Numbered from the stretch's first letter, positions 2,365 to 23,461 are shown. The stretch: DNA of 64,000 nucleotides from Escherichia coli (GCF_001677475.2 NZ_CP015229.1), one strand, 5' to 3'. Notes: a model not told the origin generated them from the sequence alone. A program made the numbers and translations.

Positions 2365-3042
2365 ATGAAGTGGGACTGGATTTTCTTTGATGCCGATGAA
2401 ACGCTGTTTACCTTTGACTCATTCACCGGCCTGCAGCGGATGTTTCTTGACTACAGCGTCACCTTTACCGCTGAAGATTTTCAGGACTATCAGGCCGTTA
2501 ACAAGCCACTGTGGGTGGATTATCAAAACGGCGCGATCACTTCATTACAGCTTCAGCACGGGCGGTTTGAGAGCTGGGCCGAACGGCTGAACGTCGAGCC
2601 GGGTAAACTCAACGAAGCCTTTATTAATGCGATGGCGGAAATCTGTACGCCGCTGCCGGGCGCGGTTTCTCTGCTTAACGCCATTCGTGGCAACGCCAAA
2701 ATCGGCATCATCACCAACGGCTTTAGTGCCTTGCAACAGGTGCGTCTGGAACGCACGGGCCTGCGTGATTACTTCGATTTGCTGGTGATTTCCGAAGAAG
2801 TTGGCGTTGCCAAACCGAATAAGAAAATTTTCGATTATGCGCTGGAACAGGCGGGCAATCCTGACCGTTCACGCGTGCTGATGGTTGGCGACACTGCCGA
2901 GTCCGATATTCTCGGTGGCATCAACGCCGGGCTTGCGACCTGCTGGCTGAATGCGCACAATCGCGAGCAACCAGAAGGCATCGCGCCCACCTGGACCGTT
3001 TCTTCGTTGCACGAACTGGAGCAGCTCCTGTGTAAACACTGA
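2365..3042 (+). CDS. yjjG: HAD-family pyrimidine 5'-nucleotidase
   Basis: 225-aa ORF starting [15 protein letters not shown] (HAD DxD motif); K-12 synteny. Confidence 0.88.
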
Positions 3043-3132
3043 TTGCCTCCCCCCCGTTGATGGGTAAAATAGCCGCAATTTTTCGTTTTCAACAAGCGCG
3101 GCGCGATGCCGCTTACTCAAGAAGAAAGAATT

Positions 3133-3207
3133 ATGACGTTGTCTCCTTATTTGCAAGAGGTGGCGAAGCGCCGCACTTTTGCCATTATTTCTCACCCCAA
3201 TAATTAA
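3133..3207 (+). pseudogene. prfC: Displaced 5' end of prfC (first ~21 codons) left at attL, running into phage DNA to a stop
   Basis: ATG at 3133 encodes [22 protein letters not shown] then diverges (NN*) after the att core; the full prfC is at 54307. Confidence 0.8.
3184..3197. other. attL core (ATTATTTCTCACCC), left prophage junction
   Basis: Identical 14-bp sequence recurs at 54355..54368 inside the intact prfC 5' end; flanking ~20 bp match with one mismatch. Confidence 0.75.
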
Positions 3208-3361
3208 GCCTAAATTAAAGCTCTTTTACTTTTTCAAAGTCCTTTCAGTTAATTGATGTTTGGTTTTATAAGTCATTTAAATACAGTTAGTTATGTGGCT
3301 TCTTTAATTGAAAATTCTTTCATGTAACTTTAAATCGATCAGGTTGCTTTCATCAAAAATC

Positions 3362-3418
3362 TGTACATATGCTTGTACATAATGTACAAAGCAGCAGAGG
3401 TGTTTTGCGATTTGTACA
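3362..3418. promoter_or_regulatory. Cluster of four TGTACA-containing repeats (TTGTACATA / ATGTACAAA) between attL and int; candidate integrase arm-type sites
   Basis: ctgTACAtatgctTGTACATAATGTACAAAg ... tTGTACAag; the same 9-mers recur near attR (54172..54286). Confidence 0.4.
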
Positions 3419-3427
3419 AGGTGAGTA

Positions 3428-4663
3428 ATGGCGCTGTCTGATGCGTGGTTGCGTTCAGTCGTTGGAAAGGAACGTGATAAGGTTTTGGTTAAATCCGATC
3501 GTGATGGTCTGTCTGTCAGAGTATCACCGAAAGGTCGCGTAGTGTTCCAATATCGTTATCAATGGGCAGGGAAAGGTGAGCGCCTTGATATCGGAACTTA
3601 CCCGGCAACTGGATTAAAAGAGGCCAGAGAAGAAGTTATCCGTCTCCGTGGTGAACTCGAGTCAAACCGCAATCCACGATTAGTCAAGCAGGCTGAAAAA
3701 CGAAAAGCTACTGAAGCCATGACGGTAGAGTCTGTGATCCGTGCCTGGTATGAAGCATATTGTGTAAAAAATAAAAAAGGTTCTGAACAGATACTCCGCT
3801 CGTTTGAGCTGCACCTGTTCTCTAAAATCGGGAATATCCCTCACGATGCAGCTACATTGCATGATTGGTTAGAAGTCCTGGAGCCTCTTAGCACCAAGAC
3901 TCCAGCAATAGTAGACCGATTGCTAATTAACGCAAAGCAGGCTCATGTCTGGGCGTATAAGAGAAAGCTCATTGAAACTCGCCCACTGTCGGATATCACG
4001 GGTAAAGATATGGATATCCGTAAAGGTCAGAAAAAACGGTTTCTGACACATGATGAAATTAACATCCTTTATGCTGCGATCGATGGTTCTCGAATGGTTC
4101 CTAAATACCGAGCCTTCATTAAACTATTGCTGCATTTTGGTTGCCGTAGTTCAGAGCTAATTACTGCTAGGGTGGATGATTTTGATTTCATAAATAAGGT
4201 ATGGACTGTACCACCAGAACGACATAAGACTGGGGACATAACAGGCGAACCGCTAAAGCGGCCCATTATTGAACCGGTTGAAGAGCTTATAAAATACGTT
4301 ATCTCTATGAACAACGGTTCCGATATGCTTTTTACTAAGGAAGGAAGCAGGGAGCCAGTTGGTCGGACATCATTGCAGTCGCTGCCTTACAATTTAATGC
4401 AGTTCGCATGGCGACGTTTGGGGTATCAATTTCCTCATTGGTCTCTTCATGATTTGAGACGAACAGCACGAACAAACTTTTCTGATCTTACTGCTCCTCA
4501 TATTGCTGAAATAATGCTTGGTCATAAACTGCCAGGTGTATGGCAAGTTTATGATAAGAGCGATTATCTAGAAGAACAGCGTAAAGCTTACTGGGCATGG
4601 TGGGAGAGGGTTGAATCGATCGTTACTTGTACTGACTTAATCTCCAACGGACAGTTTGCGTAG
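3428..4663 (+). CDS. int: Tyrosine integrase, P4-type (N-terminal arm-binding domain plus catalytic domain)
   Basis: 411-aa ORF directly inside attL; C-terminal HDLRRTARTN and catalytic Y region typical of tyrosine recombinases; SD AAGGTGAG before ATG. Confidence 0.9.
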   Translation: MALSDAWLRSVVGKERDKVLVKSDRDGLSVRVSPKGRVVFQYRYQWAGKGERLDIGTYPATGLKEAREEVIRLRGELESNRNPRLVKQAEKRKATEAMTVESVIRAWYEAYCVKNKKGSEQILRSFELHLFSKIGNIPHDAATLHDWLEVLEPLSTKTPAIVDRLLINAKQAHVWAYKRKLIETRPLSDITGKDMDIRKGQKKRFLTHDEINILYAAIDGSRMVPKYRAFIKLLLHFGCRSSELITARVDDFDFINKVWTVPPERHKTGDITGEPLKRPIIEPVEELIKYVISMNNGSDMLFTKEGSREPVGRTSLQSLPYNLMQFAWRRLGYQFPHWSLHDLRRTARTNFSDLTAPHIAEIMLGHKLPGVWQVYDKSDYLEEQRKAYWAWWERVESIVTCTDLISNGQFA

Positions 4664-19081: not shown

Positions 19082-19294
19082 TCATGAAAGGTAAACATTG
19101 GCAGCTGAAGGGCCACGCAGAGCATTTATCCGGCAAAATTCCACGCGTAATCCGGTGGTAATTTCTTCTGCATCGCGGAGATTGAGCGCTGAAACATGAA
19201 GCTGGACATCGATACGACCATCGGATGGGGTGATAAGACCCTTGCCGCTTTTGCCGTCAAAGGTTTTGACAATTCCTGTCATTTTACGGGACAA
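19082..19294 (-). CDS. Cold-shock protein, CspF/CspH-like
   Basis: 70-aa [30 protein letters not shown]...; cold-shock domain; non-ATG start as in K-12 cspH/cspF. Confidence 0.85.
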
Positions 19295-19594
19295 AAAAAT
19301 TCCTTAATACTGATAACTTGGCGCACTATACACACGTTCCTGAAGAAAGCTATAGTTTTTTGATGGGGTTGAAGATGGCTGGATGTCTAAAATAAACATT
19401 GCTTCATATGTTCAACTATGCGTTAATGATTGCGTCGGTTTGAAGAACAGACGATATACGAAGTAGTTTACTAAAGCAGTTCTCATTTCAGGTGTTATTC
19501 ACTTATTCCTTCTTTGAGTCTCTCCAATTAAGTACGAAGTCGTTTCTGTTATACAAGCCATTTATGCCGAAAGGCTCAAGTTAAGGAATGTAGA

Positions 19595-19810
19595 ATGTCA
19601 AATAAAATGACTGGTTTAGTAAAATGGTTTAACGCTGATAAAGGTTTTGGCTTTATTTCTCCTGTTGATGGTAGTAAAGATGTGTTTGTGCATTTTTCTG
19701 CGATTCAGAATGATAATTTTCGAACCTTATTTGAAGGTCAAAAGGTTACCTTCTCTGTAGAGAGTGGTGCTAAAGGTCCTGCAGCAGCAAATGTCATAAT
19801 TACTGATTAA
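19595..19810 (+). CDS. cspB: Cold-shock protein CspB
   Basis: 71-aa [44 protein letters not shown]...; near-identical to recalled CspB; divergent from the cspF-like gene as in Qin. Confidence 0.9.
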
Positions 19811-20173: not shown

Positions 20174-20344
20174 TCAAGCTACAGCTTTAAGATTTGTCTG
20201 GAATACTTTGTTGCAATGAGGGCAGATCAAAAGAGCACCTTTTTGTACTCTTGAAAAACTGTGTTCTGACTCTTGGGTGCAGTTTGGGCAGGAACATTTA
20301 ACGAGATAATTACGGCGTGATTTTGAGTCTTTACGTTCTGACAT
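20174..20344 (-). CDS. Small zinc-ribbon protein (two CxxC pairs), function unknown
   Basis: MSERKDSKSRRNYLVKCSCPNCTQ...CPHCNKVF; start at internal ATG with SD AGGA; a TGTATA-N8-TATACA palindrome lies just upstream. Confidence 0.45.
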   Translation of the reverse strand: MSERKDSKSRRNYLVKCSCPNCTQESEHSFSRVQKGALLICPHCNKVFQTNLKAVA

Positions 20345-20562
20345 AGGCTTTTCCTGTATAAATGGCCGTATACAGTACACTAAATATGAAAACATATCTC
20401 GTATTATTATTTAATATATGATTTTCTTTTAAAATAATTACCCACATTTTTAATGTGTCTGTTTTTTAGCGCCGTTGAGAACAACGTTTGCTATAAAAAC
20501 TAACCCATAGACTCCGATCTTTTCAAACATATTGCACCATCTGTGTACATCGGGGTGAGGAT

Positions 20563-20778
20563 ATGAAATCAATGGATAAGTTAACAACAGGTATCGCCTA
20601 TGGCACATCGGCTGGTAATGCTGGTTTCTGGGCATTGCAGTTACTCGATAAAGTAACTCCGTCACAGTGGGCTGCAATCGGTGTGCTGGGTAGTCTGGTT
20701 TTTGGCCTGCTGACATATCTGACAAACCTTTATTTCAAGATTAAAGAAGACAGGCGTAAGGTTGCGAGAAGAGAGTAA
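20563..20778 (+). CDS. Holin (phage 21 S / EssD-EssQ class II type)
   Basis: 71-aa ORF with two TM segments and charged C-terminus ([13 protein letters not shown]). Confidence 0.85.
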
Positions 20779-20782
20779 TCCA

Positions 20783-21334
20783 ATGACTCAAGACTATGAA
20801 CTGGTTGTGAAAGGAGTTCGCAATTTTGAGAATAAAGTGGCGGTAACTGTAGCCTTACGGGACAAAAAACACTTTGACGGTGAAATTTTTGACCTGGACA
20901 TCTCGCTGGACCGTGTTGAAGGTGCCGCGCTGGAGTTTTATGAGGCAGCAGCCAGAAGGAGCATCAGACAGGTCTTCCTGGATGTTGCTGCCGGGTTATG
21001 TGAAGGGGATGAGCAGTCGCCGGAAAAGCGCCCCATAATTTTAGAGGCGCAGAATGTGTGGATAACCTACAAAGGAAAGCTACCGGGAAGAATTACTGGT
21101 TCTCTGAAGACGCCACCGACGGCATTGCGGTCAGAAAAAGATGATATTGAATCGCCCATTGAAAAACTGGAGGGCAGCGTCGCTGATCTGAATAAAAAAT
21201 TGTCGGTGCTGATTCCTTCTGAAGATGAAAAAAAACGCCGCGATGAGCAGTTTGCGGCGTTTTACGATTATTGCATTGAAGTTACTCGCAGGAATTTTGT
21301 GAAGATTTTTGAGGAGGGTAAATCTCTTCAGTAA
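20783..21334 (+). CDS. Hypothetical protein between holin and endolysin
   Basis: 184 aa from ATG at 20783 (MTQDYELVVKGV...); no recognised motif; possibly YdfR-position gene. Confidence 0.4.
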   Translation: MTQDYELVVKGVRNFENKVAVTVALRDKKHFDGEIFDLDISLDRVEGAALEFYEAAARRSIRQVFLDVAAGLCEGDEQSPEKRPIILEAQNVWITYKGKLPGRITGSLKTPPTALRSEKDDIESPIEKLEGSVADLNKKLSVLIPSEDEKKRRDEQFAAFYDYCIEVTRRNFVKIFEEGKSLQ

Positions 21335-21542
21335 GCTTATTGGCGGACGCTGCAATTAATTCAGGAAGGTCCGCAAGGTCATCTGTCAGTGGATATGATG
21401 AAAAATCGGCGGCAGTTCTGTTAAGAAGCGCTTTAACTAATTCCTTTTCCTTCTCCGGCAACAAGTTGATTAGAGCTACGACTGCTTGCCTGAGTGCGAT
21501 TAAATCAGCAAAAGTTTGTTTTGGTAGATTTGTGTAATCCAT
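21282..21542 (-). CDS. Hypothetical 86-aa protein, convergent and 3'-overlapping the preceding ORF
   Basis: Minus-strand ATG preceded by SD GAGGCG; non-repetitive protein-like composition. Confidence 0.35.
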   Translation of the reverse strand: MDYTNLPKQTFADLIALRQAVVALINLLPEKEKELVKALLNRTAADFSSYPLTDDLADLPELIAASANKLTEEIYPPQKSSQNSCE

Positions 21543-21655
21543 AGTCGCCTCGGTGTTTATCAGATTGACATCCTCCTCCCGCCAGTGCCCATCACTGGTG
21601 AGGTAAGATTTAACATATCCGGGGATTTGAAGCCGATAAATCCTGATAAATATCC

Positions 21656-22683
<1,028 letters not shown>

Positions 22684-23045
22684 ATTAATATTAAATCGGA
22701 TTATTTTTAGCGCTGAATGTGAAATTTAAATAAAAAGGACTCTTCCATGAGTCAAAATCCTTGAAATCTTAAGGGTAAGATAAAAGGTCATTAGACAGAA
22801 TGACACGTTTTATTAATAAATAAAGCTATTGTTTCATTCGTGTGTTTTTCTTTACAAAAGTAATCCTTGCTATGGTTGGTTAATCATGCGTTAATGGTGT
22901 TCTGGTTTGTTACAAAATTATCTGAAGCAGTCATTGTTATAATTTTATTATTTGTACCTCTTGAGATTTCCTTGTTGGTTTTTCTCTCTGATATTTTTTT
23001 CGGACCATTCTGCCCAAGGGCTAACTTCTTCAAAAGGTAATAATG

Positions 23046-23258
23046 ATGTCTAACAAAATGACTGGTTTAGTGAAATGGTTTAACCCTGAAAAAGGTTTTG
23101 GTTTCATCACGCCGAAAGATGGTAGCAAAGATGTGTTTGTCCATTTCTCAGCTATTCAGAGCAACGATTTCAAAACGTTAACTGAGAATCAGGAAGTCGA
23201 ATTTGGTATTGAGAACGGACCTAAAGGCCCCGCGGCTGTTCATGTTGTGGCACTTTGA
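23046..23258 (+). CDS. cspI: Cold-shock protein CspI
   Basis: [70 protein letters not shown] matches recalled CspI. Confidence 0.9.
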
Positions 23259-23461
23259 GGTAGAAAATATTACAAACCATATTCACTTTAGATGCCCGTG
23301 TTGCCATGGTTCTCAGTATAGAACATCATCTTTTGATGTTTCTGACAGGAATCCTTTCGGGGCAAAATGTATCTTTTGTAAATCAATGATGATTACATTT
23401 GATAATATTTCACAATACTTAAATGTTAGCCGTCTGTCGTTAGATTTAAGAAAGTGAAAAT

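Follow-up and report, generated by a model that had tools for sequence, protein, structure and literature searches.

Why should two genes on opposite strands run into each other, tail to tail, between the holin and endolysin genes of a prophage? The question is raised by a stretch of 64,000 nucleotides of Escherichia coli DNA (GCF_001677475.2, NZ_CP015229.1), called the window below and numbered from its first letter. Both open reading frames (ORFs) lie in the lysis cassette of a Qin-like lambdoid prophage carried there. The original prediction, made from the sequence alone, described a plus-strand ORF of 184 residues and a minus-strand ORF of 86 residues with a good Shine–Dalgarno (SD) sequence, overlapping by about 50 bp between a holin gene and an endolysin gene, and suggested that antisense pairing here could set the timing of lysis. 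The geometry was described correctly: the ORFs converge and overlap by 53 nt, the minus-strand ORF has its SD, and the neighbours are a class II holin gene and a lysozyme gene. The plus-strand ORF also lies where it was placed, its length being 183 residues plus the stop codon rather than 184. We call the minus-strand ORF gene B and the C-terminal segment of the plus-strand product module A. As for what the pair is, the comparative data fit an inserted accessory cassette better than a core regulator of lysis. The features on which the argument turns are as follows.

20783–21334, plus strand: YdfR/DUF1327–module A fusion, 183 residues (ATG at 20783, TAA at 21332–21334; Pfam and phrog_2091 matches)
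20783–21118, plus strand: DUF1327/YdfR part of that ORF, common to phages without the cassette; homology with phage PhiR55_1 stops at 21118
21131–21334, plus strand: module A, the last 67 residues of the ORF (SEKDD...KSLQ, then stop), predicted to be helical; elsewhere a stand-alone gene of 67–73 residues
21282–21542, minus strand: gene B, 86 residues, acidic (isoelectric point, pI, 4.6), ATG at 21542–21540, TAA at 21284–21282; phrog_2572 match and homologues
21282–21334, both strands: convergent coding overlap of 53 nt, the last 17 codons and stop of A opposite the last 17 codons and stop of B
21548–21551, minus strand: SD sequence GAGG of B, 5 nt ahead of the ATG
21119–21628, both strands: inserted cassette of 510 nt, comprising module A, gene B and the B upstream region (blastn breakpoints 21118 and 21629 against PhiR55_1)
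21228–21263, minus strand: hairpin, candidate intrinsic terminator of B (AAAACGCCGC, 12 nt, GCGGCGUUUU, then U residues)
21612–21640, minus strand: candidate sigma-70-type promoter of B, with −35 TTTATC (21640–21635), a 17-nt spacer and −10 TATGTT (21617–21612)

The pair as an inserted, mobile cassette

Comparison with related prophages gives clean breakpoints. In the Qin prophage of E. coli K-12, a ydfR gene of 103 codons abuts rrrQ, and homology with the window ends at 20988 and resumes at 21646. In PhiR55_1, YdfR has 116 residues, the lysozyme gene begins 63 nt later, and homology ends at 21118 and resumes at 21629. The PhiR55_1 breaks therefore define 21119–21628 as a 510-nt insertion. A moron is a usually independently expressed gene that appears inserted in an operon when relatives are compared (PMC2629481), and the presence of the cassette here and its absence from these two relatives follow that pattern. 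Most of the cassette is found in 293 of 5426 complete E. coli genomes, the surrounding lysis region being matched in 5155 of them; most relatives, including K-12 Qin and PhiR55_1, lack it.

The cassette is also found away from E. coli and away from this site. Homologues of B fall into three families, B1, B2 and B3, which are 38–55% identical to each other (proteins P0019, P0021, P0053 and P0055 among them). Pairing was scored at loci drawn from phage records, E. coli genomes, 57 IMG/VR contigs, metagenomic contigs and Salmonella assemblies. Every locus recovered with an intact B and its 3′ region on the contig has an A-type ORF that converges on B; the two overlap by 53 nt throughout the B1-type loci and by 59 nt where B is of type B2 or B3. 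Since the convergent arrangement recurs in three families, in different genomic contexts and with one or the other overlap length, it is beyond chance. Part of the co-occurrence is nevertheless forced, because the 3′ end of B is the complement of A’s tail. Judged by sequence comparison, the A–B pair is a real recurring unit in Escherichia and Salmonella prophages.

Gene B very probably codes for a protein

B is very probably a protein-coding gene. Its product matches phrog_2572 over the full length (E = 4 × 10⁻⁵³). A word-indexed search returned only E. coli relatives of at least 84% identity, plus partial sequences that include one from Salmonella. An exhaustive phmmer scan of 1.84 billion representatives gave two genuine distant relatives, P0019 (93 residues) and P0021 (89 residues), and a profile search then added Salmonella enterica proteins to the family. 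Two further phmmer matches, P0020, a tetratricopeptide-repeat protein, and P0022, an odd sequence, were set aside as compositional on inspection. A scan of one genome per species gave no B relative; no B2-type DNA was found in the complete E. coli genomes, and B3 was present in only eight of them.

The three families agree in length and in an N-terminal motif, have 29 invariant positions in common, and each has an SD sequence 5–9 nt from an ATG or GTG start, the SD-equivalent site in B2 and B3 being AAGGA. This conservation of start codon, SD and length bears out the view of the original prediction that the minus-strand ORF deserved attention. Changes in B are dominated by third codon positions. 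Nonsynonymous-to-synonymous ratios (dN/dS) within E. coli cannot tell B from the frame opposite it, since the third codon positions of the two frames coincide, and a between-family comparison of BLOSUM62 scores and codon usage was used in their place to discriminate the frames. Between families, the B frame has BLOSUM62 scores of 152, 142 and 211, and the opposite frame 109, 49 and 133. By codon usage, B2 and B3 score highest in the B frame; in B1 the frames are barely separated.

The frame opposite B holds an ORF of 65 residues (21340–21537, plus strand), in a frame different from that of A. We judge it to be a shadow ORF because it begins with TTG, lacks an SD sequence and is less conserved by BLOSUM score than the B frame. 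None of the annotations or gene calls that were examined reports it. The frame stays almost stop-free in all three B families, and this persistence is notable in its own right.

In an AlphaFold 2 (AF2) model, B has helices at residues 8–26, 30–48 and 56–74, forming a three-helix core with a predicted local distance difference test score (pLDDT) of 70–82, and a disordered tail at residues 75–86. The tail is essentially the part encoded by the overlap. The 53-nt overlap would thus arise because a predicted disordered C-terminal tail of B is encoded opposite the last 17 codons of A.

Insertion sequence (IS) transposase genes disrupt B within the cassette in some prophages of E. coli that makes Shiga toxin (STEC), as in E. 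coli 2013C-3277 (locus L010, 1245–2458, IS3 family); an IMG/VR contig (L062, 2802–4168) is likewise interrupted. It follows that B is dispensable, at least in resident, possibly defective prophages.

The late-strand protein and module A

The original prediction recognised no motif in either ORF. For the plus-strand ORF this does not hold: its residues 1–112 carry a full DUF1327/YdfR domain (PF07041, model positions 1–92 of 93, E = 4.9 × 10⁻⁴²), and residues 1–183 of 183 match phrog_2091 (E = 8 × 10⁻¹¹²). Its position between a class II holin gene and a lysozyme gene is also that of the DUF1327/YdfR family, and it is 84% identical to K-12 YdfR over residues 1–72. The ORF is therefore a YdfR-like gene, the very outcome that the prediction had named as speaking against it. 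The exact 183-residue protein occurs on at least 1000 contigs under the name “YdfR family protein”. Residues 1–72 of K-12 YdfR bind the catalytic N-terminal half of RNase E, and RNA co-purifies (PMC13232886, 2026). Given the 84% identity over the same residues, binding of RNase E may extend to the window protein and is the sole functional lead for it.

Module A is the part of the late-strand protein that accompanies B. Its C-terminal 37–40 or so residues are homologous across the partner ORFs of the families, and by BLASTP the stand-alone form of 73 residues is 43% identical to residues 149–183 of the window protein (E = 3 × 10⁻⁵). Two helices are predicted for it, at low confidence, in the AF2 co-fold with B described below. 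Module A is found in four forms. It may be fused behind a YdfR of the window type or the Shiga toxin (Stx) phage type, giving proteins of 169–211 residues, or behind a K-12-type YdfR, giving proteins of 174–243 residues (L069–L073). It may also stand alone, without DUF1327, as a gene of 67 residues directly after the holin (L061 and L064; on 393 contigs). The fourth form, a stand-alone gene of 73 residues, follows Rz in Salmonella enterica and on contigs from metagenomes and IMG/VR (L014–L016, L065–L068, L074 and L077). The lysis cassettes of the S. enterica prophages with a post-Rz A contain a GH19 endolysin and unrelated holins.

Module A without B is seen where the helix runs on into other C-terminal domains, as in phage Stx2_95 (329 residues) and the PPompW phage (213 residues). 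Such sequences diverge from the B-bearing ones exactly at the position of B’s stop codon.

The K-12-type YdfR–A fusions occur in forms of 174 residues (L072, 869–1393) and 243 residues (L071, 4224–4955), which differ by an internal insertion of 69 residues resembling phrog_11851. This insertion is a further sign of a late protein assembled from interchangeable modules. As to annotation, the Prokaryotic Genome Annotation Pipeline (PGAP) labels the intact 183-residue ORF as a YdfR pseudogene “missing C-terminus” (window 20783–21118; for example, L001, 6284–6619). This call looks like an artefact caused by the mosaic C-terminus. The RefSeq records of strains A22 and A32 list no feature for B.

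The hairpin beyond B

Eighteen nucleotides past the B stop codon, the B strand can fold into a hairpin, AAAACGCCGC–12 nt–GCGGCGUUUU, with a 10-bp GC-rich stem and eight U residues in all (−14.6 kcal/mol; z = −4.3 against shuffled sequences). B in the window thus has a candidate terminator of its own, another mark of a moron. The hairpin was overlooked by our terminator scan because of the scan’s loop limit of 8 nt. It falls within codons of A that specify K-K-R-R-D-E-Q-F-A-A-F, and hairpins lie at the equivalent site in B2 (z = −3.3) and B3 (z = −6.0). The B3 stem, AACGCCACC/GGUGGCGUU, carries a compensatory change, and the peptide encoded there is altered from KRRDEQFAAF to QRHHENGVAF. That the stem is kept by compensatory change while the residues differ argues for selection on the structure. 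Pairing is complete on the B strand in 9 of 10 B-bearing variants and in none of the three B-less variants, which have a mismatch, although these variants are not independent of one another. In L061 and L064 the stem is kept by a G–U pair, which is a C–A mismatch on the late strand. A hairpin in the 5′ untranslated region of B is no more stable than shuffled sequences (z = −1.0).

The candidate promoter and a shared leader

In the 113 nt that lie upstream of B, up to the lysozyme ATG, TTTATC is separated by 17 nt from TATGTT (TATTGT in B2). Both hexamers and their spacing are invariant, with a variable spacer sequence, across B1, B2, B3 and two other minus-strand cargo genes. The −10 hexamer is missing from PhiR55_1 (L009), which has no minus-strand gene.

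A 19-nt motif overlaps the −35 end of this region.

21635–21653, minus strand: 19-nt motif ATATTTATCAGGATTTATC, reading GATAAAT-CCT-GATAAAT on the plus strand and adjoining the lysozyme ATG; module junction or lysozyme leader

The motif is present in 66 of 75 loci, including the B-less L006, L007 and L009, and occurs once in the window against 0.03 expected. The 19-mer, ATATTTATCAGGMTTTATC, was considered as an operator specific to B, a reading that we rejected because B-less phages also have it next to the lysozyme ATG. It is found with the cassette even at the post-Rz site, and a module junction or lysozyme leader is the best reading of it.

Two Stx phages carry other genes behind the same leader. 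In Stx1_699 (Stx1a, L006, LC567827), an unannotated minus-strand ORF of 210–233 residues (3041–3742) converges on an annotated plus-strand ORF of 263 residues with an overlap of about 250 nt, and a hairpin plus T7 lies past its stop codon. It is identical in eight Stx phages and has no Pfam, PHROG or PADLOC match. Given the overlap, the C-terminal third of the annotated 263-residue ORF may itself be a shadow. In Stx2_12E129_PPompW (Stx2a, L007), the equivalent slot holds a minus-strand ORF of 104 residues (3121–3435) that belongs to phrog_1853; kinship of this ORF with B was considered and dropped, there being none by BLASTP or hhalign. With an unrelated ORF in B’s place, the slot looks like a hot spot for antisense cargo genes.

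Searches for a function

The homology and structure searches called for by the original prediction identified DUF1327 in the plus-strand ORF and, for B, homologues only, none of known function. Foldseek comparison of the AF2 model of B with the Protein Data Bank (PDB) likewise gave no relative with a known function. Nothing in Pfam, NCBIfam or PADLOC matches B, and PHROGs gave only families of unknown function. For anti-phage defence, no PADLOC match was obtained with either ORF at E values up to 1. The anti-CRISPR AcrIIC4 was considered for B and rejected: it appeared only weakly in a comparison of the profile with PDB sequences (E = 0.14–0.17), and Foldseek against the PDB found nothing better than E = 6. 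Holin, antiholin and spanin identities were rejected in the same way, as neither A nor B has a convincing transmembrane stretch or a lipobox; the highest 19-residue Kyte–Doolittle hydropathy in B, 1.62, is in a stretch that holds conserved D, R and Q residues. A type I toxin–antitoxin or cis-antisense RNA identity is not favoured either, since both ORFs encode acidic, soluble proteins (pI 4.6 and 4.8–5.2) and no Rfam family matches at the locus. An AF2 co-fold of A and B joined by a Gly/Ser linker had a pLDDT of 47 and a predicted template modelling score (pTM) of 0.24 from a shallow alignment of eight sequences, and is uninformative rather than negative evidence. A full-text literature search returned no description of the pair.

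Proposed explanation and its rivals

We propose that 21119–21628 is a small mobile accessory cassette inserted in the late lysis operon, an antisense-oriented moron with a conserved late-strand partner. B looks like its own transcription unit, with a weak promoter by the lysozyme start, an SD sequence, an ATG and a hairpin plus U-run. Module A, a late-strand helical segment of about 67 residues, would be the partner and is here fused in frame to the C-terminus of YdfR/DUF1327. B would be transcribed independently of the Q-dependent late operon, probably from the prophage, and A would be made only late, when read-through would counter B expression by collision and by RNA duplexes. The anatomy of the pair, its conservation and mobility, the hairpin and the DUF1327 identity are shown by the data; whether the promoter is active, when the genes are expressed and whether lysis is affected we infer. 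Two features go beyond a plain moron: the late-strand partner is obligate, and B’s terminator hairpin lies within the partner’s coding sequence. For the explanation as a whole, a moron cassette with B as its own transcription unit and A as a late partner, we estimate a probability of about 0.5.

Several observations weigh against this proposal. The candidate promoter fits the sigma-70 consensus at only 7 of 12 positions and was unreported by the scan. The U-run is convincing only in B1 and poor in B2 and B3, in which the hairpin may serve in stability or processing and not as a terminator; the late strand can form it too (−18.7 kcal/mol), and in the B-bearing L055 it pairs only on the A strand. 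As for B itself, dN/dS among three E. coli alleles is 0.35–0.7, and the opposite-strand frame scores alike; the AF2 model is of moderate confidence (pLDDT 67, pTM 0.38). B and its partner match no family of defence, anti-defence, toxin or lysis proteins. Finally, A and B occur together more strictly than a plain moron requires, which hints at a functional link left open by the proposal.

It is tempting to give that link to the proteins. B would be an effector made by the prophage, acting in exclusion, defence or host modulation, and late A would bind and neutralise it, or the reverse, by the logic of toxin and antidote or of self-immunity, with the overlap enforcing reciprocal expression and co-inheritance. 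The pair is kept, overlap included, in three families, two insertion sites and two genera, even where A stands alone, and A dispenses with B only where its helix extends into another C-terminal domain. Yet the co-fold contains no confident complex, neither protein matches a toxin, antitoxin or defence family, and both are acidic and soluble. Moreover, the overlap by itself forces A’s tail to be inherited with B, so that the co-occurrence is weaker evidence than it appears; we regard a two-protein module as possible, though doubtful. A link through the nucleic acids is what the original prediction had in mind, and it too is doubtful, if anything a shade more so. As a cis-antisense device, the B transcript would reduce or postpone endolysin and spanin expression compared with that of holin, or uncouple the fates of their mRNAs, by collision and an RNA duplex across 21230–21605, and the B protein would be secondary. 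The geometry is suitable: the candidate promoter is 15–44 nt from the lysozyme ATG, so that bound RNA polymerase would probably cover the start of a gene that has no SD sequence of its own, the B transcript would be complementary to the late mRNA over the whole stretch between A and R, and the overlap has been held at 53 or 59 nt through deep divergence. However, in the B2-type loci (metagenomic, IMG/VR and Salmonella) the pair follows Rz, downstream of all the lysis genes, where it cannot separate holin from endolysin, and most relatives lyse without it; both facts weaken the idea that the pair times lysis. The protein sequence of B is also more conserved than an antisense RNA needs, and Q-antiterminated late transcription would be expected to far outweigh a promoter with a 7/12 match.

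A bolder combination of these ideas, which we consider improbable, would make A and B a mobile, self-contained switch of two genes, for which phage lysis regions have so far offered no described parallel. A would be a late-expressed antagonist or partner of B, tethered here to an RNase E-binding YdfR domain; the overlap and the embedded terminator would enforce reciprocal expression, with a change from the B state to the A state at the Q-dependent late onset, and B may modulate RNA decay. Least probable of all, and very unlikely in our view, is that B is a shadow ORF, kept open by constraints on the opposite strand or on the RNA or DNA, and that only late-strand products matter. The near absence of stops from the opposite frame in all three families, its equally low dN/dS among E. 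coli alleles, the restriction of B to Escherichia and Salmonella and the poor separation of frames by codon usage in B1 would fit such a view. Against it, B retains its ATG or GTG, SD sequence, length and helical pattern at 38–55% identity; BLOSUM conservation is clearly higher in its frame, which is also preferred by codon usage in B2 and B3; the late-strand ORF has a TTG start, no SD and a frame other than A’s; and PGAP, PHROGs and the collections’ gene calls report B and not the ORF opposite.

Comparison with known systems

Phage λ bor is antisense to the late operon and sited between Rz and the terminase genes. Like bor and other lambdoid morons, the cassette is missing at this site in close relatives, has a candidate promoter and terminator, and lies on the opposite strand in or after the lysis cassette; in Salmonella the pair is between Rz and the terminase genes, the site of bor in λ. 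In contrast to bor, B has no signal peptide or lipobox, overlaps a late coding sequence, has a fixed late-strand partner, and has its terminator in the partner’s codons. λ cII–OOP and txpA/RatA are convergent units in prophage settings whose 3′ ends are complementary over tens of nucleotides, one partner being a small non-coding RNA; in type I toxin–antitoxin systems the other partner is a short hydrophobic toxin. The A–B pair resembles these units in its setting, its convergence and its complementary 3′ ends over tens of nucleotides. It differs in that both partners are soluble, acidic, conserved proteins, and no Rfam family matches.

K-12 YdfR shares with the window protein the DUF1327 domain over the first 112 residues and a position between essQ and rrrQ. 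It differs in having 103 residues and overlapping the rrrQ start, whereas the window protein has 183 residues, a replaced C-terminal helix and a minus-strand gene next to it. In P22, the immI region, or “ant moron”, and the sar antisense RNA are thought to affect the late transcription that reaches a downstream gene (PMC2629481). The likeness is that of an accessory region with opposed transcription inside a late operon; there is no sequence relationship, and here both strands code for conserved proteins, with no repressors or antirepressor. There is also precedent for a moron that affects a downstream late gene (PMC2629481).

Significance

Databases already list the two proteins, under the names “hypothetical” or “YdfR family”, and PHROGs places them in families of unknown function. 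Going by full-text literature searches, what appears to be undescribed is the conserved tail-to-tail pair, its mobility between unrelated lysis cassettes, the terminator in A codons, and the leader shared by antisense cargo genes. In Qin-like and Stx-type prophages, annotations of the interval between holin and endolysin usually read “YdfR family” or “hypothetical”, and in the present case even “pseudogene”. The interval is shown to be a hot spot, in which a shuffling late protein of DUF1327 and swappable C-terminal modules is accompanied by three or more unrelated minus-strand cargo genes that share a single leader. Should the pair prove to be a functional unit, it would offer a compact case of coupling between opposite-strand genes within a phage late operon, and it could also give clinically relevant prophages of STEC and Salmonella a new function. 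If it is no more than a moron, the annotation is corrected, and precise coordinates are supplied for a candidate promoter and terminator.

Neighbouring features

The segment from 20500 to 22700 (2.2 kb) is 100% identical to several RefSeq chromosomes, in which the genes are essQ, a YdfR family protein, rrrQ and rzpQ; phage PhiR63_1 has proteins 100% identical to the products of both ORFs. The neighbours are as follows.

20563–20778, plus strand: class II (phage-21-type) holin, essQ homologue; upstream late-operon neighbour (ORF, with RefSeq names in 100%-identical records)
21340–21537, plus strand: 65-residue ORF opposite B, judged a shadow ORF (TTG start, no SD)
21656–22189, plus strand: lysozyme, rrrQ homologue, with a hydrophobic N-terminus; downstream late-operon neighbour
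22186–22683, plus strand: Rz-type i-spanin (DUF2514), rzpQ homologue (ORF call and RefSeq annotation)

From its hydrophobic N-terminus, we read the lysozyme as being of the signal-anchor-release (SAR) type. The lysozyme gene is without an SD sequence (window 21630–21658); in K-12, by contrast, it is coupled to ydfR. The direct repeat GATAAAT-CCT-GATAAAT directly 5′ of the lysozyme ATG is kept in many phages, whether the cassette is present or absent. Cold-shock genes surround the lysis cassette, namely cspF on the minus strand and cspB, cspI and a ymcF-like gene on the plus strand (window 19082–19810, 20174–20395 and 23043–23458), and the zinc-binding ynfU (minus strand) is just upstream of the holin gene. 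Both the cold-shock genes and ynfU seem to be additional accessory genes in the late region of Qin-type prophages.

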